A stretch of DNA of 39,032 nt from Candidatus Heimdallarchaeota archaeon (lineage in GTDB: Archaea; Asgardarchaeota; Heimdallarchaeia; Hodarchaeales; Hodarchaeaceae): the NCBI GenBank assembly GCA_020353515.1, contig CP070695.1:3888008-3927039 (forward strand). The letters are read 5' to 3'. Shown here piece by piece: positions 26,892 through 39,032 of the stretch; position 1 is the first letter of the stretch, and each line of letters begins with the position of its first letter. The translations under genes were made by a program, and so were the position numbers. The notes under the pieces are model-generated. The model saw only the letters and a list, made by a program, of their open reading frames with translations, was not told the origin of the DNA and ran no database searches.

Positions 26892-28433
26892 TCAAAGATA
26901 TATTGCTGATCCTACAACTTCAGCCACATCTTTAATCTGCAGTGGGATAGATTTCCTCCGAGATGTGATATGGAAATTCATTTGACATTGTGGACACGCT
27001 GTAGTTAAGCAATCCACATTGATTGGAACCACATCTTCTTTCAATCTTGTATGAGTAGAATCCATACTCACCTGATGATTAAATGTCCAAAGACCACCTC
27101 CTCCGCCACAACATCGTGATTTATCCCTGATAAAAGACATTTCAACAAGTTTTAAGTCAGGTATGGCTTTTAAAACATTCCGAGGAGCGTCAAAAACATT
27201 ACTATGTCTTCCTAGGGAACATGGGTCATGATAAGTCACTTTCAAGTCTAGTGCTCTTAGTTCTATTTCTCCCTTCTTTATTATTTTTTCAAGAAATTGA
27301 GTTGAATGAAATACCTTACAAGGTAATGAAACATCAAGAATCTCAGGATATAGCTTTATGAAGGTATTATAACATCCTGCACATGGTGTAATGACTGATT
27401 CAGCTTTCGTCGTTTCAATCCTTTTAATGAGCTCTTGTGCCACTTTTTTTGCCTCATCCCATAACCCTGAAGCAAGTAAAACGTACCCACAACATCCTTC
27501 GTTTTTCCCCAACGTTGTAAAATTTATTTTAGTATGGTTTAAGATGTTATAGAAAGTTTTGGCTGTATTTGGGGTTCTATTTGCCACTACACAACCAACA
27601 AAGTAGAGATGATCACTAGATAGTGGTAGTTTTATTGGTAAATCCTTCATCCATGCTAGTCGTCGCTTTACTGATACAGCACTAGGATCTCCATGATCCA
27701 AGATATTTTTAGCCGTTGTTTGGAAGACTTGTGGAATCATATTATTCTCAACGATATGTCGTCTCATTCGAACAATTGCCTCATGAAGATCCACTTTCTG
27801 AAAACATTCTCCAAAACAGCGCCCACACTTACTGCAAGTATATAAGACATCAATTACCTTTTTTGTCAGATTCAGTTCTCCTTTCATTACCCCCTTGATT
27901 AATAATCCTCTACCCCTCGCAGAATATGTTTCAATTCCCCTAAAGGAAGGTGTTACAGTGCAATAATCACTGCATATGAAGGATTGGAGACAAGTGTTTC
28001 CAAATTTTTGTTGAAACAGTGTTTGGATAGCTACTGCGAAATTTCGATACCCTCCATGACCAATGTGCCGAAGTTCAGACAGATATTCATCTAAATCTGA
28101 TTTTTCTTCCTTCTTGGTTACATTTCTATTGGGTACAGGAATTTTTATATCATCTAATAAAATTAAGGTATTGGGGCTTGCGAAATTTGAAGGAAGTTGC
28201 TCTCCTCTTCGAATTACTGTTACATTCTTTTTCATGACTGTTTCTAAAATTTTTTCTTTTTGACCTGATGAATATACTTTGACCACAATATCAGGCATTG
28301 GATAAGCCTGTTTCATGAAAATTTTTTCAAAGGAATAAACATAACGGTCTTCTAAGTCAGTTAGGACATGAATTTTTGGTGAAATCTGTTTTAACTGTTC
28401 AACAAGTGTATTCTCTGATACCATGTTAGACAA
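26892..28433 (-). CDS. Fe-S oxidoreductase with two CCG domains (GlpC/HdrD-like)
   Basis: CSKCGRCFGEC, YFVGC, EGCCG, TPCAGC, TYHDPCSLGR, CCGGGGG, TACPQC; N-terminus resembles start of a GlcD-like FAD domain; alternative start ATG 28424. Confidence 0.88.
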   Translation of the reverse strand: MSNMVSENTLVEQLKQISPKIHVLTDLEDRYVYSFEKIFMKQAYPMPDIVVKVYSSGQKEKILETVMKKNVTVIRRGEQLPSNFASPNTLILLDDIKIPVPNRNVTKKEEKSDLDEYLSELRHIGHGGYRNFAVAIQTLFQQKFGNTCLQSFICSDYCTVTPSFRGIETYSARGRGLLIKGVMKGELNLTKKVIDVLYTCSKCGRCFGECFQKVDLHEAIVRMRRHIVENNMIPQVFQTTAKNILDHGDPSAVSVKRRLAWMKDLPIKLPLSSDHLYFVGCVVANRTPNTAKTFYNILNHTKINFTTLGKNEGCCGYVLLASGLWDEAKKVAQELIKRIETTKAESVITPCAGCYNTFIKLYPEILDVSLPCKVFHSTQFLEKIIKKGEIELRALDLKVTYHDPCSLGRHSNVFDAPRNVLKAIPDLKLVEMSFIRDKSRCCGGGGGLWTFNHQVSMDSTHTRLKEDVVPINVDCLTTACPQCQMNFHITSRRKSIPLQIKDVAEVVGSAIYL

Positions 28434-28603: not shown

Positions 28604-29371
28604 TTGGCAGATGAGTTAATTCAAGTTGAGAAAAAAAATGATATTGGAACAATACTATTTAATAACGGTGATTGGAATATTTTAAACATCGCAATGATGA
28701 AACAGATTAATGAAGCACTTGAAAGTTTTTTAACAGATCAATCTCTTAAAGCAGTCGTGATTGGCCATTCTGGAAGGTCATTTTCTGCAGGAGTCGATGT
28801 GGGTGAACATATGGGTGATATAGCTCCAAAAATGTTGAGGGAATTTCATGATATGTTCAAAAAGCTTAATCGATTCAACTGTCCAACAATTGCTAGTGTT
28901 AAGGGAGCTGCTCTCGGTGGGGGATGTGAAGTGGCAGTTTTCTGTGATATCGTCATTGCATCAGAGAAAGCTAAATTTGGACAACCTGAAATTAAAGTTG
29001 GAGTTTTTCCCCCTGTATCCGCATTAATATTCCCCTATCTCACGGGCCACAAGAAAGCATATGAACTTCTACTCCAAGGTGAAACAATCAATGCCAGCGA
29101 GGCTCATCGCATTGGTTTAGTCAATCATGTATTTCCAGTTGACTCGTACGAACAGGAATTTGATCAATTTCTTGAACGATTCAAAAAACTAAGTACAGTG
29201 GTGTTACAACATACTAAGAAGGCGATTCGTTTAGGATTTGCTGACGATTTCGATTCTCAGATTGATAAAATGGAAGATTACTACCTGAATGAACTCATGA
29301 AAACACATGATGCGAATGAGGGATTAAAGGCGTTCGTGGAAAAACGAGCTCCTGAATGGAAAAACCACTAG
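28604..29371 (+). CDS. dch: Crotonase-family hydratase, cyclohexa-1,5-diene-1-carbonyl-CoA hydratase-like
   Basis: NILN..MM, FSAGVDVGEH, ALGGGCE, FGQPEIKVGVFPP, YLNELMKTHDANEGL; adjacent to had. Confidence 0.78.
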   Translation: MADELIQVEKKNDIGTILFNNGDWNILNIAMMKQINEALESFLTDQSLKAVVIGHSGRSFSAGVDVGEHMGDIAPKMLREFHDMFKKLNRFNCPTIASVKGAALGGGCEVAVFCDIVIASEKAKFGQPEIKVGVFPPVSALIFPYLTGHKKAYELLLQGETINASEAHRIGLVNHVFPVDSYEQEFDQFLERFKKLSTVVLQHTKKAIRLGFADDFDSQIDKMEDYYLNELMKTHDANEGLKAFVEKRAPEWKNH

Positions 29372-29527: not shown

Positions 29528-30574
29528 ATGAAAGCGGCTGTTTTTGAAAAAGTTAAAACCCCGATGAAAATTGATGAAAATTATCCTACTCCTGAAATTT
29601 CTGGGAAATCAGGAAAAGTGATATTGAATATTGAAGCATGTGGTGTTTGTCATACAGATTTAGGCTTTCTGGACCATGGTGTTCCAACAGGAAAAGCTCC
29701 ACCATTGATTTTAGGACATGAAATGTCTGGAAAAGTAGCAGAAATGAGTGATGATGTTACTCAATTCAAAAAGGGTGACCATGTTCTTGTTCCTGCAGTG
29801 ATATCCTGTGGGAACTGTTATTATTGCAGAATTGGACGTGAGAATATTTGTTCAAATCAGACGTTCTTTGGGAGTAATGTAGATGGAGGTTTTGCAGAAC
29901 AGATAATGGTTCCAGCCAAAGATATTTTTCATCTTCCTTCGGAAATTCCGATAGAAGAAGGGTGCATCATTTCAGATGCAGTTTCAACCCCTTATCATGC
30001 TGTCAAGAATCGTGGACAGGTACGACCAGGAGATTGGGCTGTTGTGATTGGATGTGGAGGAATCGGGTTAAATGTTGTACAAAATATTAAAGCAGCTGGT
30101 GGATTACCCATTGCTCTTGATATCATTCCCAAGAAATTAGAAGTTGCGAAACAACTTGGAGCTGTCGAAACAATCTTAACAAAAGACTTAGACAAAAAAG
30201 CTATTGTCGGCGCAATAAGAAAAATTACAGGAGGAGGAGCAGATGTTGCTTTTGAAGCAATAGGACACCCTGTAACTTTTGCTCAAGCTTTTGACAGTCT
30301 TAGAAAGGGAGGAAGATTGGTTGCAGTTGGATATTCTCCTAAACGTTGGGATGGTTTTAATGTTGGTCGTGTCATGTTTTACGAAATGGAATTAATCGGG
30401 AGTTTAGGATGTCGGACGGTAGATTATCCACGGATAATTGAATTAGTTAAGAATAAGACATTAGTTGTCGAACCTCTAGTGACAGGAAAATATCCGCTTT
30501 CTGAAATCAATGAAGCATTTGATGTAATGCGACTAGGAGAAGGGATTCGTACGATTATATTATGCCAAAAGTAG
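29528..30574 (+). CDS. had: Zn-dependent MDR dehydrogenase, 6-hydroxycyclohex-1-ene-1-carbonyl-CoA dehydrogenase-like
   Basis: CGVCHTDLGF..GV.T..PLILGHE.SG, VPAVISCGNCYYC..GRENIC, DAVSTPYHAV, GC..VDYP features of Had. Confidence 0.78.
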   Translation: MKAAVFEKVKTPMKIDENYPTPEISGKSGKVILNIEACGVCHTDLGFLDHGVPTGKAPPLILGHEMSGKVAEMSDDVTQFKKGDHVLVPAVISCGNCYYCRIGRENICSNQTFFGSNVDGGFAEQIMVPAKDIFHLPSEIPIEEGCIISDAVSTPYHAVKNRGQVRPGDWAVVIGCGGIGLNVVQNIKAAGGLPIALDIIPKKLEVAKQLGAVETILTKDLDKKAIVGAIRKITGGGADVAFEAIGHPVTFAQAFDSLRKGGRLVAVGYSPKRWDGFNVGRVMFYEMELIGSLGCRTVDYPRIIELVKNKTLVVEPLVTGKYPLSEINEAFDVMRLGEGIRTIILCQK

Positions 30575-30588
30575 GGATTGAACTAAAA

Positions 30589-31731
30589 ATGAAAGTTGGT
30601 ATTGTAGGTATAGGTCACAGTAGATTCGGTCGTCGTGACGATGTGACTGTTCAAGAGCTAGCGTTTGAGCCCTTTGTAGAAGCATTAAATGATGCTGGGA
30701 TCGCTCGCAAAGATATTGGAGCTACAATCATCGGAGCAAGTCCTGTATATATGACACAAAGAAGCATTGCTGGACCTATTACAGAATATCTCGGATTAAA
30801 TCCCCAACCAGTTTGGCTTACTGAAGCAGCTTGTAGCAGTTCTGCAGTAGCTTTACGAACAGCATATGCCTTAATTTCCGCAGGTATGCATGAAATCGTT
30901 TTGGTGTTGGGTGTTCAGAAGATGTTAGAAAATCCTACATCAGAAGTCCTGAAAATAATGGGACGGAGTGGAGACGTACAGTGGGAAGCTCCCTACGGGA
31001 CCACTTTTGCGAATTATTACGCTATGTATGCAAACTCTCATATGGCGAAGTATGGCACAACATCAGAACAGATGGCGGCTGTGGCTGTAAAAAACCATTA
31101 TTATGGGGCAATGAACCCGTTAGCAATGTTTCAAAAGGAGATTACAATCGAAAGAGCATTAGAATCAAGAATCATTGCCTCTCCGTTACGTCTTTTTGAT
31201 TGCTGTGCAAATGCTGATGGTTCTGCTGCACTTATTGTAACAAACGAAGAAAAAGCCAAACAACTCTCGGATACACCAATTTGGATTTCTGGTCTTGGTG
31301 CCGCTACTGCTCCTTTTTCATTGTTGACTCGTCCAGAACTAGCTACTTTATCTAGTGCGGTGGAAGCCTCAAATATAGCATATAATCAAGCTAAAATTCA
31401 GGCTCAGGATATAGATGTTGCTGAAGTCCATGATTGCTTTACAATTGCAGAAATCATGGCTTATGAGGATTTGGGATTTGCAGAGCGAGGAAAAGGAGGA
31501 GAATTTGTTGAAGAAGCCTATATAGGTGGGAAAGTTCCTATAAATGTCGATGGTGGACTGAAAGCAAAAGGACATCCTGTTGGAGCCACTGGGTGCTCAC
31601 AGGTTGTTGGGATTGTCAAGCAACTTCGTGAAGAAGCAGGAAAGAGTCAGGTCGATGGCGCAGAGATTGGATTGACACATAATGTCGGTGGACACGGGCA
31701 ATATTGTGTGGTTCATATTTTTTCACGGTGA
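30589..31731 (+). CDS. Archaeal-type (SCP-x-like, DUF35-associated) thiolase
   Basis: EAACSSS catalytic Cys, AVKNH, DCC..ADG, EVHDCFT, GGLKAKGHPVGATG, HNVGG; likely start ATG 30589. Confidence 0.92.
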   Translation: MKVGIVGIGHSRFGRRDDVTVQELAFEPFVEALNDAGIARKDIGATIIGASPVYMTQRSIAGPITEYLGLNPQPVWLTEAACSSSAVALRTAYALISAGMHEIVLVLGVQKMLENPTSEVLKIMGRSGDVQWEAPYGTTFANYYAMYANSHMAKYGTTSEQMAAVAVKNHYYGAMNPLAMFQKEITIERALESRIIASPLRLFDCCANADGSAALIVTNEEKAKQLSDTPIWISGLGAATAPFSLLTRPELATLSSAVEASNIAYNQAKIQAQDIDVAEVHDCFTIAEIMAYEDLGFAERGKGGEFVEEAYIGGKVPINVDGGLKAKGHPVGATGCSQVVGIVKQLREEAGKSQVDGAEIGLTHNVGGHGQYCVVHIFSR

Positions 31732-31742
31732 GGTGAATAACG

Positions 31743-32954
31743 ATGAAACAATTTGGGTATAAAGACTATATTTCTCAATCAAAGATTGGTGCGCGCTTTT
31801 TGGAAGCTTTAAGAGAAGGAAAGTTGGAAGGAACCAAATGTACCCAATGTTCAACAATGTATTATCCTCCTAGAGCCAATTGCAAAGAATGTCTTACCGA
31901 TGAATTTATTGAACCTGCAGAATTCTCTGGAGAAGGGAAAATCTTATCATTTTCTGAAGTTCATGTTCCTCCCGCTGGTTTTGAGCGTTTTGCTCCATAT
32001 ACCGTTGCTGTAGTTGACCTAAAAGAAGGTGGGAGAGCAGTAGCTTGGGTAGATGACGTTACAGAGCCACTTGAGATTGGTGAAGATGTAATAATCAAAC
32101 CAGAGGTTGTTGAGGGTGACAGGGTGACTTATCGTGTTCTAAGAGGGAAAGAAATTACAGTTTCTGCTCAGGAGATTGTTGTGTCGAAAGAATTTAGAAA
32201 AAAATCACAAAGACTGCTGGACAAAGTTGCTATTGTTACAGGAGCAGGAAAGGGAATAGGTAGAGAAATTGCTTTAGAGTATGCAAGAGAAGGAGCCAAG
32301 GTAGTTGTTGCTGCGAGGACACAATCAGATATTGATTCACTTGTAGAAGAGATTTCAGAATTAGGAGGTGAAGCACTTGCGATCTCCTGCGATGTTTCTA
32401 ATCCTGATGATGTACATCGTTTAGTAGAGGGAGCCATAAACAAGTTTCAAAGTATAGATATACTAGTAAACAATGCAGGTATCTCTCGAAGTGCTCTAAT
32501 ATCAAAAATGTCCGATGACCTCTGGAATTCAGTTATTAACATCAATTTAACGGGTACATTCAACTGTGTTCGTGCTATATCTTCTCATTTTATGGAAAAA
32601 AGGCCTCTTGGTGGAAAAATCATCAATTTTACTTCGACTGCTGCAAAATATGGCAACATAGGCCAAGCTGCATATGCTGCATCTAAATGGGGGATTATTG
32701 CTTTCTCAAAAACTGCAGCACGAGAATTAGCTCGTTATAAAGTTAACGTAAATTGTATTATGCCAGGATACATTGAAACAGCAATGACCGCAGATACTCC
32801 TTCTGTTTATAAGGAACAAACAATTGCTCAAATCCCACAAATGCGGATTGGATATCCAGACGATGTTGCAAAAGTGGCAGTCTTCCTAGCATCGGAAGAT
32901 TCTGATTACATGACTGGGGGAGTTGTTCAAGTCGATGGTGGCCTACGAATGTGA
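31743..32954 (+). CDS. Fusion of DUF35 (Zn-ribbon/OB-fold) and FabG-like SDR (3-oxoacyl-CoA reductase)
   Basis: aa ~1-135: CTQC..YPPRANCKEC, PYTVAVVDLKEG; aa ~157-403: TGAGKGIG, NNAG, YAASK, VDGG; no stop in linker; GAGGTGA SD overlaps thiolase stop. Confidence 0.9.
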   Translation: MKQFGYKDYISQSKIGARFLEALREGKLEGTKCTQCSTMYYPPRANCKECLTDEFIEPAEFSGEGKILSFSEVHVPPAGFERFAPYTVAVVDLKEGGRAVAWVDDVTEPLEIGEDVIIKPEVVEGDRVTYRVLRGKEITVSAQEIVVSKEFRKKSQRLLDKVAIVTGAGKGIGREIALEYAREGAKVVVAARTQSDIDSLVEEISELGGEALAISCDVSNPDDVHRLVEGAINKFQSIDILVNNAGISRSALISKMSDDLWNSVININLTGTFNCVRAISSHFMEKRPLGGKIINFTSTAAKYGNIGQAAYAASKWGIIAFSKTAARELARYKVNVNCIMPGYIETAMTADTPSVYKEQTIAQIPQMRIGYPDDVAKVAVFLASEDSDYMTGGVVQVDGGLRM

Positions 32955-33321: not shown

Positions 33322-33770
33322 TTGTGTAAGTGGTGTCTTAAACATGGTGCTGGTGGGAAATGGTATCTAAATGCCTAGAACTATTTAACAGAGACATCTA
33401 AGGGTTATAATGATTCTCGTGAATATTAAGAAGTTCTTTGGGGAAATCTTGAACGAATTTATTTAGGGAAAACCTTCGGGATGTCTATAAACAACGTGAT
33501 TTCGTATCGACTTAAGATCCCGATAATTGGACGTATTATCAAAAGGATAATGAACAAAAAAATCGAAAAAGAAAAGAATCCCAACCCTCAAATTGCAGAA
33601 GGACATTTTGGTCAGGTTATTCCCTTAGAAGAAGCCAAGATTATTGTCTCCGATCTGGCTGATGTTAACGCCAAAGTAATTGTCCTTGTCGATATATGCA
33701 CCGTGGGATTAAAGTTGATACTTGTTTGGGGTTCAACGCTCTTGCAGAAGTGTTTCCCAAGCTTCCTCTT
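33322..33770 (+). pseudogene. Decayed 4Fe-4S ferredoxin-domain protein
   Basis: TTG-CKWCLKHGAGGKWYLNA*NY..EY*..HFGQVIPLEEA; stops at 33376 (TAG) and 33427 (TAA); frameshift near 33675 into NCPCRY..TCLGF; 3' end truncated (end approximate). Confidence 0.7.
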
Positions 33771-33802
33771 CTCAGTTTCACCATTTCGTGGATTCATTTT
33801 TC

Positions 33803-34984
33803 TCACAATTCTTTATGTATTATCTTGGCTAATCTCTTCATTCCTACAACGATTTTCTCTTCCGGCATATTGGAAAAATTTAGTCGTATAGAGTTCTCAT
33901 GACCTCCATTAGGATAGAAACAGCCACCTGGGACAAATGCAACTTTTTCTTGTAGAGTTTTTTCGAGTAATTCCCGTCCATTAATATGTTTCGGAAATTC
34001 AATCCACAAAAATAAACCTCCTTCTGGAACTGAGTATTTTGCTTCTGGAGGAAATTCCTCTTTAATGATTTGAATCATCAGATCACGTCGTCGCTTGTAC
34101 ACTTGCCTAATCTTATTGATATTGATAGTAATATCATATTCACTTAGGTATAGTGCAACTTCTCTTTGAGCCATTGTATTACATTGCAAATCAGCTACTT
34201 CTTTCAACATGGTATATTTCTTAACTAATTCTCTACTTGCACATATCCAACCGATTCTAAAACCTGGGCAAAGAATTTTCGAAAATGTTCCTAGGAATAC
34301 TACATTACCCTCTGTATCAAAAGCTTTAATTGGAGGTATATTTTTCCCCTCGAATCTTATCTCTCCATAAGGATTATCTTCTATCACAGGTAAATGAAAT
34401 TTGTTCACTACTTCAATGAATTCTTTGCGTCTTGTTACTGACCAACTGATTCCTGTAGGATTTTGAAAATCGGGGGTGACATAAATCAATTTGGCTTTTG
34501 GAGTTTGAGATAATGTTTTCTCAAGTTCTCCTACCTTTATCCCATCATTATCGATGGGTATGTCTACAAATTTTGCTTGATATGACCTAAATGCGCCTAT
34601 AGCTCCTAAGTAACAAGGTTTTTCACTTATAACTACATCTCCAGGATTCAAGAACAATTTCCCACTGAAATCTATTCCTTGTTGAGATCCATTTATGATC
34701 AAAATATTCTCTGCTGATGTTTTGACCCCAGTTTTCTGCATACGTTCCGCTATCATTTCTCTTAGTGGTAGATAACCATCTGTAGGAACGTATTGAAGCG
34801 CATCTGATCCACATTCCTCCAAAACTTTTGCTGAAATTTCTTTCAATTCCTCTAGAGGAAATAATTCAGGAGCTGGTAATCCCCCAGCAAAAGAGATTAT
34901 GTCTGATTTTCCAATGAATTTGATGATTTCCCGTGTTTCTAACCCTTTTACCTGATCCATGCGATTTGCATATTTTAATGTCAT
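33803..34984 (-). CDS. PLP-dependent class I/II aminotransferase (LysN/aromatic type)
   Basis: ISFAGGLPAP, GSQQG, PDFQNPTG, EDNPY, TFSKILCPGFRIGW, RLNFS. Confidence 0.92.
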   Translation of the reverse strand: MTLKYANRMDQVKGLETREIIKFIGKSDIISFAGGLPAPELFPLEELKEISAKVLEECGSDALQYVPTDGYLPLREMIAERMQKTGVKTSAENILIINGSQQGIDFSGKLFLNPGDVVISEKPCYLGAIGAFRSYQAKFVDIPIDNDGIKVGELEKTLSQTPKAKLIYVTPDFQNPTGISWSVTRRKEFIEVVNKFHLPVIEDNPYGEIRFEGKNIPPIKAFDTEGNVVFLGTFSKILCPGFRIGWICASRELVKKYTMLKEVADLQCNTMAQREVALYLSEYDITININKIRQVYKRRRDLMIQIIKEEFPPEAKYSVPEGGLFLWIEFPKHINGRELLEKTLQEKVAFVPGGCFYPNGGHENSIRLNFSNMPEEKIVVGMKRLAKIIHKEL

Positions 34985-35271
34985 TAAAAAGTCACCATAT
35001 TATATTAAGGCTGAATTTCCATGAAAATAAATGAATTTGATAAAACATGGAGAATATTTATTGATTTGTTGGAAAATCTTCTCTATAACGATCTGTATTG
35101 ATCTCTTTGATATGTTTTTTTAGATTAATGTTTTGTAAGTAGTTCTAAAAGCTCTTTAATGATTGAATTTCTTCGCTCTTTACGTAATCATGTTGGATAA
35201 AAACCAACTATAATCATAAAACGATTCATATTAGGCTTTTTAATAAAAAACTTCAATAATTGGTGTGTCTT

Positions 35272-36465
35272 ATGGCTTTTGAGTTTACAGAAGAGCAAGA
35301 AATGTTCAGAGAAAGTGTAAGAGAATTTTGTGAAAGGAGAATAGTACCCCTTGGTCTCACATTGGAAGAAACCAAGGAGATACCACAGGAAATAAAGAAA
35401 GGTATGGCTGAACTCGGCCTTCTTGCATGTACAGCTTCCCCTGATTATGGTGGTTCAGGCCTGAATGCTGTTAGCGCAGGTGTAATAGCAGAAGAACTGG
35501 GGAGAGCAGATCCAACAGGGTCAATACCAGTTTTTTATCTCGTTCAGGCGTCCTGGGGTTTTTTATTGAACAAATATGGCACTGAAGAAGCGAAAAAAGA
35601 AATATTTCCAAAAGTAATAAGCGGGGACTGGTTTCTTGGAATAGCAACAACTGAAGCAGATGCCGGTTCAGATGTCGTTGGTACTTCAATGACAATAAAA
35701 AAAGCATCTGATGGATTTATTGTTAACGGCGAAAAGATGTATATTAGTGGGGTACGGGAAGCGGCAACTGGTGGTGGAGGCCATGTCACGATTGCGCACC
35801 AGACACCAAAGCAGGGTAGTAGAGGTATGACGGTATTTTATTTCCCTTTAACTGCTGAAGGTGTCACACCCACATATATCTCAGACCTAGGTAGAGAGGG
35901 TATATCCTGTGGGGGTTTTACAGCTGATGATGTAAAAATTCCCAGTCATTATATCATTGGAGAAGAAAATAGAGGATTTCACATTATTCATGAAGGATAT
36001 GAATTCGCAAGAGCCCTAATTGCAGTAATATGCGCATCATCGGGCTTGAAATCTTTAGAGAATGGTATGAACTACATAAAAGAAAGAAAAGTCTTTGGAA
36101 CAGCTATTGGAAAATTTGAAGAAATAAATTTCAGATTAGCTGAGCACTACACAAGGCTTTGTGCGTTACGAGATATGGGATATAAGGCGTTGTGGCTTAT
36201 CGATAAGGAACAGGAAGGAAAAGCTAGCAGATTTGAGGTAAGTAAAGCTGTTGCCATGGCAAAAATGTTTGCATCCGACTGGGCCTGTAATGCTATAAAC
36301 GATGTGATGCAGTGGCAGGGAGCATTTGGTTATTCAAAAGAATGTGTTGATCAAGCTGCATGGAGAGCTGTGAGATCATTTGCTCTTGCAGAAGGATCAA
36401 GAGAAATTATGAAGATGATTGTTGCCAGAGAGCTACTTGGAAAAGACTTCATTGCATATAAATGA
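35272..36465 (+). CDS. Acyl-CoA dehydrogenase, cyclohexanecarboxyl-CoA dehydrogenase (AliB)-like
   Basis: TEADAGSD, NGEKMYIS, DLG, GEENRGF..GYEFARALI, EGSREIMK; family certain, substrate inferred. Confidence 0.85.
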   Translation: MAFEFTEEQEMFRESVREFCERRIVPLGLTLEETKEIPQEIKKGMAELGLLACTASPDYGGSGLNAVSAGVIAEELGRADPTGSIPVFYLVQASWGFLLNKYGTEEAKKEIFPKVISGDWFLGIATTEADAGSDVVGTSMTIKKASDGFIVNGEKMYISGVREAATGGGGHVTIAHQTPKQGSRGMTVFYFPLTAEGVTPTYISDLGREGISCGGFTADDVKIPSHYIIGEENRGFHIIHEGYEFARALIAVICASSGLKSLENGMNYIKERKVFGTAIGKFEEINFRLAEHYTRLCALRDMGYKALWLIDKEQEGKASRFEVSKAVAMAKMFASDWACNAINDVMQWQGAFGYSKECVDQAAWRAVRSFALAEGSREIMKMIVARELLGKDFIAYK

Positions 36466-36529
36466 AGTTCATTTTCTCCTTCTTTTTTATGAAAGGTAGA
36501 TTAAGAAAAAAAATCACAACGTGATAATT

Positions 36530-37315
36530 GTGAGATTCATAGTTTGTGTGAAACAGGTTCCCGATACTACAGAGGTTAAAGTCGATCCCAAAACAAACAC
36601 CTTGATTAGAGAAGGGGTTCCGTGTATATTAAATCCTTTTGATCAATTTGCGCTTGAAGAGGCGGTCAGATTGAAGAAAGAGGGAGATGAAATCGTTGTT
36701 ATTTCTATGGGTCCTCCTCAGGCAAAAAAAGAACTTATGAAATGTCTTGCACTAGGCGCTGACGAAGCAATATTACTTAGTGATAGAGTTCTTGCAGGCG
36801 CAGATACATGGGCTACATCTTATACCCTTGCTCAAGCTATCAGAAAGATTGGTGACTTTGACATCATATTTTGCGGGTATCAAGCAATAGACGGGGACAC
36901 TGCTCAAGTTGGTCCTGAGCTTGCAGCTCAACTTGGTATCCCTCAAATCACCTATATAGAAAGTGTTGAAGAACTTAGTGCAAGAAAATTAATAGCAAAA
37001 TCTCAAACAGATGAGGGTTACAAAATTGTAGAAGTAAGACTACCAGTTCTGTTAACAGGGATAACTCCATCAGGTTTTGTGCCTAGAAGCCCCCCATTAC
37101 CTAATATAATTAAAGCAAAGCAGAAACCATTCACCACATGGAATGCAGAGGATCTTGGTGGTGAAAAAGATAAATATGGTTTGGCTGGTTCGTTAACACA
37201 GGTTATAAGAGTTTATGCTCCTCCTACTCGTGAGAAAGGAGCCATGATCACTGATGAACCTAGTATTGCAGTTGAGAAATTAATAGAAATGTTAACTAAA
37301 GATAAGGTGTTCTGA
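36530..37315 (+). CDS. etfB: Electron transfer flavoprotein beta subunit
   Basis: VCVKQVPDT, NPFDQFALEEA, GADTWATS, QAIDGDTAQVGP; start GTG 36530 or 36521. Confidence 0.93.
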   Translation: MRFIVCVKQVPDTTEVKVDPKTNTLIREGVPCILNPFDQFALEEAVRLKKEGDEIVVISMGPPQAKKELMKCLALGADEAILLSDRVLAGADTWATSYTLAQAIRKIGDFDIIFCGYQAIDGDTAQVGPELAAQLGIPQITYIESVEELSARKLIAKSQTDEGYKIVEVRLPVLLTGITPSGFVPRSPPLPNIIKAKQKPFTTWNAEDLGGEKDKYGLAGSLTQVIRVYAPPTREKGAMITDEPSIAVEKLIEMLTKDKVF

Positions 37316-38499
37316 TGATAGACGTCAAGGAAGAGCTCTGTAACCACTGTGGAAGCTGTGTTAAAGCGTGCCCTTTCGGTGCTATACAGATCATTAATCA
37401 AATTGCTGTAATTGGAGAAGAATGTACACTTTGTGGCGCCTGTATTCAAGTGTGCAAAGCTTGTGCAATAGAAATTGAAAGAAAAGAGATAGACATTGAT
37501 TATTCCCGTTATAAAAATGTTTGGGTTTTTGCCGAGATTAAAGACGGTAAAATACGAAATGTTACATATGAATTACTTGGGAAAGCAAGACAACTTGCAG
37601 TTGAATTAGGACAGAAAGTTTGCGCTGTTCTTCTAGGAAGGGATGTGAAAAAATTATGTAAAGATCTCTCTGCTTATGGTGCAGACAAAATATTCGTTGC
37701 AGAAGATGATAGTCTTGAGCAATATTATACAGATCCTTTCACATCAGTACTTGTTGGATTAATATCAAAACATGAACCAAATATTGTTATCTACCCTGCT
37801 ACAAAAATTGGTAGAGATTTAGCCCCAAGAGTTGCTGCTACTTTAGAAGTGGGTCTTACCGCGGATTGTACTGGACTATCAATACAAAATGGTAGACTAT
37901 TACAAACAAGACCAGCATTTGGTGGTAACATAATGGCAGATATAATATCTGTAACTAGACCACAAATGGCAACAGTTAGACCTAATGTAATGAAAAAAGG
38001 CTCACCTTATAAAGATAGAACTGCTGAAATCGTCGAAATACCTGTGAGAATAGACCGAAAGGGAATTAGAACCATAATAAAAGAAATAATAGGCATGAAA
38101 TCCTCTGATGCAGTACCACTAGATGAAGCAGATATTATAGTTTCAGGTGGGAGAGGAATCGGTAGTAAAGAGAATTTCAAGATCATTGAGGATTTAGCAG
38201 GAGTTCTTGAAGCTGCAGTCGGAGCAAGTAGATCTGCGGTCGATTTAGGCTGGAAACCAAAATCTTTTCAGGTTGGTCAAAGTGGTACAACTGTTTCCCC
38301 CAAAATTTACATTGCTTGTGGAATATCAGGAAAAATACAACATCTTGTCGGGATGTCTGGATCAGATATTATTATTGCTATAAATAAAGATCCTGAAGCT
38401 CCTATATTCAATGTGGCTGATTATGGAATTGTTGGTGACCTGAATAAAGTTGTACCCGCACTGACTGAGGCATTAAGGAAGGAGCTTGCATCACGTTGA
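37315..38499 (+). CDS. etfA: Electron transfer flavoprotein alpha subunit with N-terminal 2x[4Fe-4S] ferredoxin
   Basis: CNHCGSCVKACP, CTLCGACIQVC; GLTADCT, TRPAFGGN, SGGRG, QVGQSG, GISGKIQH, AINKD; TGATG coupling with etfB. Confidence 0.93.
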   Translation: MIDVKEELCNHCGSCVKACPFGAIQIINQIAVIGEECTLCGACIQVCKACAIEIERKEIDIDYSRYKNVWVFAEIKDGKIRNVTYELLGKARQLAVELGQKVCAVLLGRDVKKLCKDLSAYGADKIFVAEDDSLEQYYTDPFTSVLVGLISKHEPNIVIYPATKIGRDLAPRVAATLEVGLTADCTGLSIQNGRLLQTRPAFGGNIMADIISVTRPQMATVRPNVMKKGSPYKDRTAEIVEIPVRIDRKGIRTIIKEIIGMKSSDAVPLDEADIIVSGGRGIGSKENFKIIEDLAGVLEAAVGASRSAVDLGWKPKSFQVGQSGTTVSPKIYIACGISGKIQHLVGMSGSDIIIAINKDPEAPIFNVADYGIVGDLNKVVPALTEALRKELASR

Positions 38500-38562
38500 A
38501 GTCTTTAGAAAACACGAATTTTTAGAATTTAATCTAATGAAATCAAATTGAGGTGGATTATT

Positions 38563-39032
38563 ATGGATTTTGAATTATCTGATGAACATGAAATGTTAAG
38601 ATCGTCAGTTAGGGAATTTGTCGATCGTGAAATAACACCAAAGATTAAAGAATATGATAGAAATGAGGAATTTCTCCCTCCACTTGATACAATGGGTAAA
38701 ATGGGATTGCTAGGTATTTGCTTCCCCGAAAAATATGGAGGAGCAGGAATGGATTATCTAGCATTAGCGATAGCATGTGAAGAGCTTGAAAGAGGGGATA
38801 TTTCGCTCAGAACTGTCCTCTCTGTACACGTTGCTCTGACTTCATGCACAATTTATCAATGGGGAGATGATAAGCATAAAAAAAAGTATTTTGTTCCTCA
38901 AAATCATGGAAAAATGATTGGAACGACTGCAATGACTGAACCATCCTGTGGATCAGATGTAGCAAATGTAACAACACGCGCGGAGAAACAAGGTAGCCGA
39001 TATATTGTTTCGGGTCAAAAAACTTGGATTTC
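38563..39032 (+). CDS. Acyl-CoA dehydrogenase, partial (glutaryl-CoA dehydrogenase-like)
   Basis: Manual translation MDFELSDEHEMLRSSVREF..PEKYGGAGMDYLALAIACEELERGD..MTEPSCGSDVA..GQKTWI; GAGGTGG SD; runs off window. Confidence 0.85.
   Translation, partial: MDFELSDEHEMLRSSVREFVDREITPKIKEYDRNEEFLPPLDTMGKMGLLGICFPEKYGGAGMDYLALAIACEELERGDISLRTVLSVHVALTSCTIYQWGDDKHKKKYFVPQNHGKMIGTTAMTEPSCGSDVANVTTRAEKQGSRYIVSGQKTWI

Follow-up and report, generated by a model that had tools for sequence, protein, structure and literature searches.

The stretch of DNA analysed here (the window) comprises 39,032 nucleotides of contig CP070695.1 from Candidatus Heimdallarchaeota archaeon, and contains four co-directional genes separated by gaps of 156, 14 and 11 nt. 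They encode a crotonase-fold hydratase (ECH), a Zn-type dehydrogenase of the medium-chain dehydrogenase/reductase (MDR) family, a thiolase (THL) and, in a single open reading frame (ORF) of 403 residues, a DUF35 module joined to a short-chain dehydrogenase/reductase (SDR); coordinates of these and neighbouring features are collected in Table 1. In the 403-residue ORF, Pfam places zf-ChsH2 at residues 21–54, OB_ChsH2_C at residues 60–116 and adh_short at residues 161–352, with adh_short_C2 reaching residue 401, and the DUF35 part passes the Pfam cut-offs (PF12172, 35.4 bits; PF01796, 58.1 bits). The thiolase gene ends with TGA at 31729–31731, a GGTGA motif follows directly, and the ATG of the fusion gene stands at 31743, 11 nt past the thiolase gene.

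Residues needed for metal binding, catalysis and cofactor recognition are retained across the family. In an alignment of 20 members the Zn-ribbon cysteines C33, C36 and C47 are invariant and C50 is present in 17; a basic residue (K/R) is kept at position 170, and neither R192 nor any residue of the N268-S298-Y311-K315 tetrad varies. The SDR part carries the motifs TGAGKGIG, VVVAART and NNAG (243–246), and at the positions of K170 and R192 the closest NAD-dependent relatives of solved structure have N/D (4nbu) or D (2et6), so that by this motif test the fused SDR would belong to the NADP(H)-preferring subclass of classical SDRs. The initial annotation had described a complete DUF35 domain in frame with a FabG-like SDR, a Shine-Dalgarno sequence at the thiolase stop, and an NADP(H) signature made up of the Lys in TGAGKGIG and the Arg in AART; the Pfam assignments, the position of GGTGA and the conservation at 170 and 192 bear out all three points. 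The linker (approximately residues 131–158) varies among family members yet always preserves the frame. An AlphaFold2 model of the fusion monomer was weak overall (mean pLDDT 64.6), with its minimum in the linker and values below 50 for residues 137–153.

The SDR part shares about 50% identity with bacterial FabG and misses the equivalog cut-offs for FabG dependent on acyl carrier protein (ACP), scoring 282.6 against 296 bits for NF004198 and 274.8 against 297.75 bits for TIGR01830. The sole ACP-like ORF of the genome (82 residues; PP-binding, 25 bits) comes after genes for a 4'-phosphopantetheinyl transferase and an FkbH-like protein (L031:4222–6783 (+), approximately 2.728 Mb), an ACP-type system unrelated to type II fatty-acid synthesis.

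Full-length architecture (residues 1–403) was found in approximately 70 metagenomic protein clusters with 52–92% identity, all from Asgard metagenome-assembled genomes (MAGs), and in 14 other species genomes. Among the 301 Asgard genomes sampled, the fusion is present in 13 of the 20 species genomes of the window's GTDB genus and in one genome of another family. Its recurrence in frame across independent assemblies shows that it is not a frameshift or assembly artefact, and we regard the fusion as confirmed. The chance that it reflects such an error, or a decaying gene, is negligible: the catalytic and Zn-binding residues are invariant and no support for this explanation was found. The SDR parts of the fusion form one clade (support 99/96), which together with the restricted spread points to one fusion event, kept under selection. 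Only one of the best 150 matches in a library of 1.84 billion representatives at 50% identity carries the fusion; the other long matches among those 150 have unrelated N-terminal domains, with no further DUF35-SDR fusion, and proteins of greater length that have words in common with the DUF35 part all belong to the same fusion family. Literature searches for an Asgard DUF35-SDR fusion found no paper. Krishna et al. 2010 (PMC2954200) had already catalogued fusions of DUF35 with Rossmann-fold domains at large, and given that list distant, independent DUF35-SDR fusions could exist elsewhere.

Split forms exist in two other Asgard genomes. In one, from the same order, THL, DUF35 and SDR are three genes, the latter two overlapping by 4 nt; in the second, the order is THL-DUF35-hydrolase-SDR. 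Two apparently free Asgard SDRs (P0072 and P0073) were rejected as split forms, being virtually identical in the tree to the SDR parts of the fused P0066 and P0063, and this near-identity suggests that they are probably truncated gene calls. In the same-order genome, the split set (L033, G265:C54, 207–7236 (-)) is followed by BcrC-, BcrB- and BcrA/D-like genes scoring 214.6, 323.9 and 215 bits, none of which attains its equivalog cut-off, with genes for an aldehyde:ferredoxin oxidoreductase (AOR), a ferredoxin and a GNAT protein upstream; Oah was not found in this genome, which is 85% complete.

The thiolase encoded next to the fusion contains the expected motifs (Cys82, HDCF at 281–284, GHP at 328–330), scores 481.6 bits for NF004720 (cut-off 420), and is the genome's only DUF35-type thiolase with a full catalytic set. 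Its best PDB matches are 7yvy and 6esq (234 bits), and BbsB (7pxp) gives 171.6 bits. A model of the complex of thiolase and fusion gave an ipSAE of 0.78 (0.80, 0.78 and 0.78 in separate runs) compared with 0.00 for the best control; 58 of 80 solved complexes attain the mark applied to this score, as do 2 of 110 mismatched pairs. The runs share at least 96% of their contacts, partner pLDDT is at least 85, and confident contacts with the thiolase are confined to residues 1–129 of the fusion, i.e. the DUF35 part. Since thiolase/DUF35 complexes have already been solved, this docking shows likeness to them, may reproduce structures that the predictor had already learned, and is no proof of binding. 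The idea of a Rosetta-stone fusion, tying a thiolase to an enzyme acting on 3-oxoacyl-CoA, gains from the modelled docking, from the split THL-DUF35-SDR genes in two Asgard genomes and from unfused oah-SDR-THL-DUF35 sets in metagenomes (described below). Taken together, the thiolase and the DUF35-SDR protein very probably constitute a coupled unit.

Two further thiolase-like genes paired with DUF35 are present in the genome, at L028:5824–7005 (-) (approximately 966 kb) and L029:6341–7609 (-) (approximately 1707 kb). Both lack the nucleophilic Cys (NGPASGG and NGGNTGG where the window thiolase has AACSSSA) as well as the second Cys of HDCF (HNAF and HDAF), and judged by these substitutions they may be inactive scaffolds or perform other chemistry. 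The sole candidate for an HMG-CoA synthase (HMGCS; L032:3706–5436 (-), approximately 483 kb; TIGR00748, 184.5 bits, below cut-off) is solitary, away from any thiolase/DUF35 pair, and possesses a C-terminal extension of approximately 170 residues with CPKCG..YF. A hidden DUF35 domain in this extension found no support (hhalign probability 2.5%, no Pfam match).

The wider genome also encodes enzymes of anaerobic aromatic degradation. A bona fide ring hydrolase, Oah/BamA, scores 569.8 bits with TIGR03200 (cut-off 464), and BzdO, a subunit of Bzd-type benzoyl-CoA reductase, is present as well (TIGR03191, 686 bits against 449); for a class I reductase of the Bcr type, the BcrB model stayed below its cut-off, whereas BzdO exceeded its own. 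In 45 of the 301 Asgard genomes, most of them lacking Oah, BzdO-like genes pass the TIGR03191 threshold, and several such hits in one family show a single in-frame TAG. A benzoyl-CoA pathway was predicted earlier in Asgard MAGs, with the steps past 3-hydroxypimelyl-CoA assigned generically (PMC8163825). Within the operon, the MDR is the genome's best match to Had (TIGR03201, 219.5 bits; next in the genome 132.8) and the ECH its best match to Dch (TIGR03189, 184.8 bits; next 93.1). We rejected a role of the MDR as NADPH-dependent enoyl-CoA reductase, since the enzyme has both Zn sites, carries an Asp after beta-2 and finds its best family match in Had.

Phyletic distribution and gene order link the fusion to Oah. 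Oah occurs in 16 and the fusion in 15 of the 301 Asgard genomes; every genome with the fusion also encodes Oah, and the sole fusion genome outside the genus is the sole Oah genome outside it. This co-occurrence is a pattern and not a statistic, as related genomes are not independent. Five relatives hold everything in one contiguous cluster, in which an Fe-S/CCG oxidoreductase gene is followed by ECH-MDR-THL-DUF35/SDR-(ACAD)-Oah-thiolase II-HCDH-acyl-CoA ligase (ACAD, acyl-CoA dehydrogenase; HCDH, 3-hydroxyacyl-CoA dehydrogenase).

We also compared 80 metagenomic Oah loci from unrelated lineages (62–73% identity). Fused DUF35-SDR is absent from these 80 loci; an unfused oah-SDR-THL-DUF35 set occurs in 14 of them, and THL with DUF35 in another 6. 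One locus with unfused SDR-THL-DUF35-Oah (L098) also contains ECH, MDR, ACAD and electron-transfer flavoprotein (ETF) homologues of the window genes with 50–57% identity. Phylogenetic analysis revealed that the fusion-linked thiolases nest in a clade of Oah-adjacent, DUF35-partnered thiolases (SH-aLRT 95), whereas the paralogues encoded in the window genome fall elsewhere; by this topology, the Oah-adjacent thiolases are orthologous to the window thiolase. The SDRs of the unfused Oah triads also carry Arg/Lys after beta-2, so that the NADP-type site is a trait of the catabolic context and no mark of biosynthesis by itself. The NADP(H) signature behind the label "reductase" in the initial annotation is thus real, and the biosynthetic role that the label implies does not follow from it. 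Orthology of the fused SDR with the triad SDRs was not supported, as the two form separate clades (support 99 and 100). In Geobacter metallireducens, an ech/thiolase/SDR trio (Gmet_2057–2059) is upregulated 15–32-fold on benzoate (PMC1924859).

On this evidence the unit probably belongs to the lower benzoyl-CoA (dienoyl-CoA) pathway. As to the step, we favour, with modest confidence, an assignment as 3-hydroxypimeloyl-CoA dehydrogenase and 3-oxopimeloyl-CoA thiolase. The scheme that we infer, including its exact substrate (C7 rather than C4), cofactor, direction of flux and complex in vivo, would run as follows. The Dch-like hydratase, the Had-like dehydrogenase and Oah would convert the dienoyl-CoA to 3-hydroxypimeloyl-CoA, which the tethered SDR would oxidize to 3-oxopimeloyl-CoA in an NADP+-linked reaction, and the thiolase would cleave the product to glutaryl-CoA and acetyl-CoA. 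The Zn-ribbon/OB part would clamp onto the neighbouring thiolase while a flexible linker of approximately 25 residues keeps the SDR beside it, allowing the 3-oxoacyl-CoA to pass from the SDR to the thiolase active site without equilibrating with the pool. Neighbouring ACAD, ETF and Fe-S proteins would then handle glutaryl-CoA and take the electrons of the next dehydrogenation. Oxidation of a 3-hydroxyacyl-CoA with NADP+ is thermodynamically unfavourable; immediate, exergonic thiolysis would pull it, which offers a rationale for joining the two enzymes.

Several observations weigh against this assignment. NADP+ is an unusual acceptor in catabolic hydroxyacyl-CoA oxidation, and ECH and MDR remain under their equivalog cut-offs (184.8 against 292.5 bits and 219.5 against 338.65 bits). 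The role of the fused SDR, lying outside the Oah-triad SDR clade, is argued from position and not from orthology. In the window genome the cluster is divided into two loci 128 kb apart, and the neighbours of Oah there, a classical thiolase and a dehydrogenase of the 3HCDH type, could carry out the C7 steps unaided. A single-contig genome of the same genus (G244) has the Oah module without the fusion cluster, and with the HCDH and thiolase at Oah this means that the assignment of the C7 and C4 steps to the two enzyme pairs could be reversed. Finally, the closest solved thiolases (7yvy and 6esq) are biosynthetic acetoacetyl-CoA thiolases.

These points feed an alternative within the same pathway, in which the Oah-side HCDH and classical thiolase act on C7 and the fused unit serves either the C4 end (3-hydroxybutyryl-CoA and acetoacetyl-CoA) or some other 3-hydroxyacyl-CoA that arises when amino acids or fatty acids are fermented. 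Oah has HCDH and thiolase II at its side in the window genome and in relatives, and they alone accompany it in G244; the resemblance to acetoacetyl-CoA thiolases, and the ACAD/ETF, aminotransferase and AOR genes nearby, would suit this division of labour as well. We nonetheless consider it unlikely, for at least 14 unrelated metagenomic loci have SDR-THL-DUF35 straight after oah in the same orientation, mostly without adjacent HCDH or thiolase II. The usual enzymes for (S)-3-hydroxybutyryl-CoA and acetoacetyl-CoA are, moreover, members of the 3HCDH family and classical thiolases, and carboxylated substrates are known for DUF35-dependent thiolases such as BbsAB, which is among the PDB matches.

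The initial annotation had left the choice between the pimeloyl-CoA step of ring degradation, favoured here, and an ACP-independent elongation of fatty acyl-CoA. The model for the latter is Sulfolobus acidocaldarius, in which a ketothiolase (KT)/DUF35 pair (Saci_1121/1120) forms a complex with the NADPH-specific SDR ketoacyl-CoA reductase Saci_1104 in fatty-acid synthesis (bioRxiv 10.1101/2024.07.05.601840). Common to both systems is that a thiolase with DUF35 and an SDR of the NADPH type serve consecutive steps, and the physical association in Sulfolobus is via KT/DUF35. By analogy, the window thiolase would condense acetyl-CoA with an acyl-CoA and the tethered NADPH-dependent reductase would pull the reaction to the (R)-3-hydroxyacyl-CoA. 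The conserved NADP(H) signature, the similarity of the SDR to FabG and the position of the window thiolase as the only catalytically complete DUF35-type thiolase of the genome could all be read in this way, and the four operon genes could formally cover the four activities of one cycle. The Sulfolobus proteins are, however, three separate biosynthetic polypeptides, and the set there includes MaoC as the dehydratase and an MDR enoyl reductase that depends on NADPH. The window supplies KT, DUF35 and an NADP-type SDR; in it, DUF35 and SDR form one chain, MaoC is unlinked (three copies lie elsewhere in the genome), and the MDR is of the Zn-containing NAD type and Had-like, in a setting of Dch, Had and Oah. 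Phyletic pattern and linkage track Oah, the unfused orthologous thiolases adjoin oah, and a crotonase and a FabG-like SDR are expected to be opposite in stereospecificity. These differences render elongation improbable.

A third possibility, very improbable in our judgement, retains the pathway and reverses the flux, as reported for Syntrophus aciditrophicus: condensation of glutaryl-CoA with acetyl-CoA would yield 3-oxopimeloyl-CoA, and NADPH would reduce this product toward alicyclic or aromatic acids as an electron sink. An NADP(H)-type site in both the fused and the Oah-linked SDRs is compatible with this direction, an endergonic condensation profits most from channelling (as in the HMGCS complex), and the organism is apparently a fermenter with ETF/Fe-S modules; the genes for a BzdO-type, ATP-dependent reductase point instead to degradative ring reduction, and an acyl-CoA ligase lies within the Oah module. 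Overall, it is distinctly unlikely that the fused unit works as an NADPH-driven condensing and reducing machine, whether on acetyl-CoA plus acyl-CoA or on glutaryl-CoA. If it did, close archaeal relatives of eukaryotes would build carbon chains by a thiolase-based route free of carrier proteins, the products being fatty acids, or alicyclic acids via a reversed benzoyl-CoA pathway. In Asgard genomes, thiolase/DUF35 pairs have been taken as signs of fatty-acid synthesis that bear on the lipid divide, and caution is advisable here, as the pair in the window more probably takes part in aromatic catabolism.

Other DUF35 systems show which parts of this arrangement have precedents. In the thiolase/DUF35/HMGCS complex (2018, as cited in PMC12960953), DUF35 on an SCP2/archaeal-type thiolase recruits the next enzyme; the modelled interface in the window likewise involves the DUF35 part only and the thiolase resembles that of 6esq, whereas the HMGCS partner is unfused and serves mevalonate synthesis and not aromatic catabolism. 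Covalent joining to the enzyme of an adjacent step is known from the MaoC-DUF35 fusions ChsH2 and Shy, which recruit the thiolase-like aldolases Ltp2 and Sal in steroid side-chain degradation (PMC11321319, PMC12329534). These are similarly catabolic and bind a thiolase-fold enzyme, but they are bacterial, DUF35 is fused to a hydratase and not to an SDR, and the thiolase-fold protein is an aldolase. BbsAB and BbsCD of the anaerobic toluene pathway (7pxp and 7pcs, both among the PDB matches) pair a DUF35 subunit with an SCP2-type thiolase, the preceding enzyme being a hydroxyacyl-CoA dehydrogenase of the SDR family, and differ in being unfused, in their substrate and in their lower similarity (the BbsB score given above). 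The unfused oah-SDR-thiolase-DUF35 sets and Gmet_2057–2059 share the same enzymatic parts, with orthologous oah-linked thiolases and NADP-type SDRs, but in the oah sets these are separate proteins in the order SDR-THL-DUF35 and the SDR is of another lineage.

DUF35 as a thiolase adaptor, its fusion to an adjacent-step enzyme (ChsH2/Shy) and a KT/DUF35/SDR complex are therefore already known; what is new is the covalent joining of DUF35 to an SDR and the assignment of this form to an aromatic pathway. The docking role of DUF35, so far extending to HMGCS, the Sulfolobus SDR and MaoC hydratases, is thereby widened to a covalently fused SDR. Enzymes converting 3-hydroxypimeloyl-CoA to glutaryl-CoA are usually assigned generically, and the fusion, taken with the orthologous thiolases and with its unfused counterparts in many uncultured anaerobes, suggests one specific set of enzymes that can be tested. 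The fusion could also serve, as it stands, as a construct for structural studies of dehydrogenase-thiolase channelling.

Table 1. Features of the operon and its surroundings (positions refer to the window).
Feature	Position	Strand	Basis and remarks
Fe-S/CCG (HdrD/GlpC-like) oxidoreductase, divergent from the operon	26892–28433	-	Pfam; synteny
Crotonase-fold hydratase (ECH), genome's best Dch match	28604–29371	+	Both catalytic Glu (GGGCE, QPE); TIGR03189
Zn-containing MDR dehydrogenase, genome's best Had match	29528–30574	+	Asp after beta-2 (NAD type); TIGR03201
SCP2/archaeal-type thiolase, 380 residues	30589–31731	+	Pfam Thiolase_C_1/Thiolase_N; alternative ATG at 30562
GGTGA, Shine-Dalgarno-like motif	31732–31736	+	Sequence; abuts thiolase stop, 6 nt ahead of fusion ATG
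DUF35-SDR fusion gene, 403 residues and stop	31743–32954	+	ORF, Pfam, family conservation
DUF35 module (Zn ribbon, residues 21–54; OB fold, residues 60–116), predicted thiolase-docking part	31803–32090	+	Pfam, complex model
Inter-domain linker (approximately residues 131–158), variable, probably flexible	32133–32216	+	Low conservation; low pLDDT
Classical FabG-like SDR domain with NADP(H)-type signature (K170, R192) and N-S-Y-K tetrad	32217–32951	+	Pfam, alignment
Acyl-CoA dehydrogenase, ETF beta, ETF alpha (with ferredoxin domain) and second ACAD cut by the window end	35260–39030	+	Pfam/family profiles

Among the genes around the operon, the ACAD/ETF set comprises candidates for the dehydrogenation of glutaryl-CoA or alicyclic acyl-CoA, and the Fe-S/CCG oxidoreductase is a probable outlet for ETF electrons. 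The latter gene is co-conserved with the operon and, by synteny, divergent from it in most relatives examined. Distant homologues of this oxidoreductase (26–32% identity) lie near Oah in 4 of the metagenomic loci, and the benzoate-induced cluster of Geobacter likewise includes an oxr gene annotated as "4Fe-4S binding". Downstream of the fusion, a 136-residue ORF (33481–33891 (+)) matches approximately 95–99 residues of 289-residue homologues in relatives and overlaps the 3' end of an aminotransferase gene on the opposite strand; it is probably a truncated remnant.

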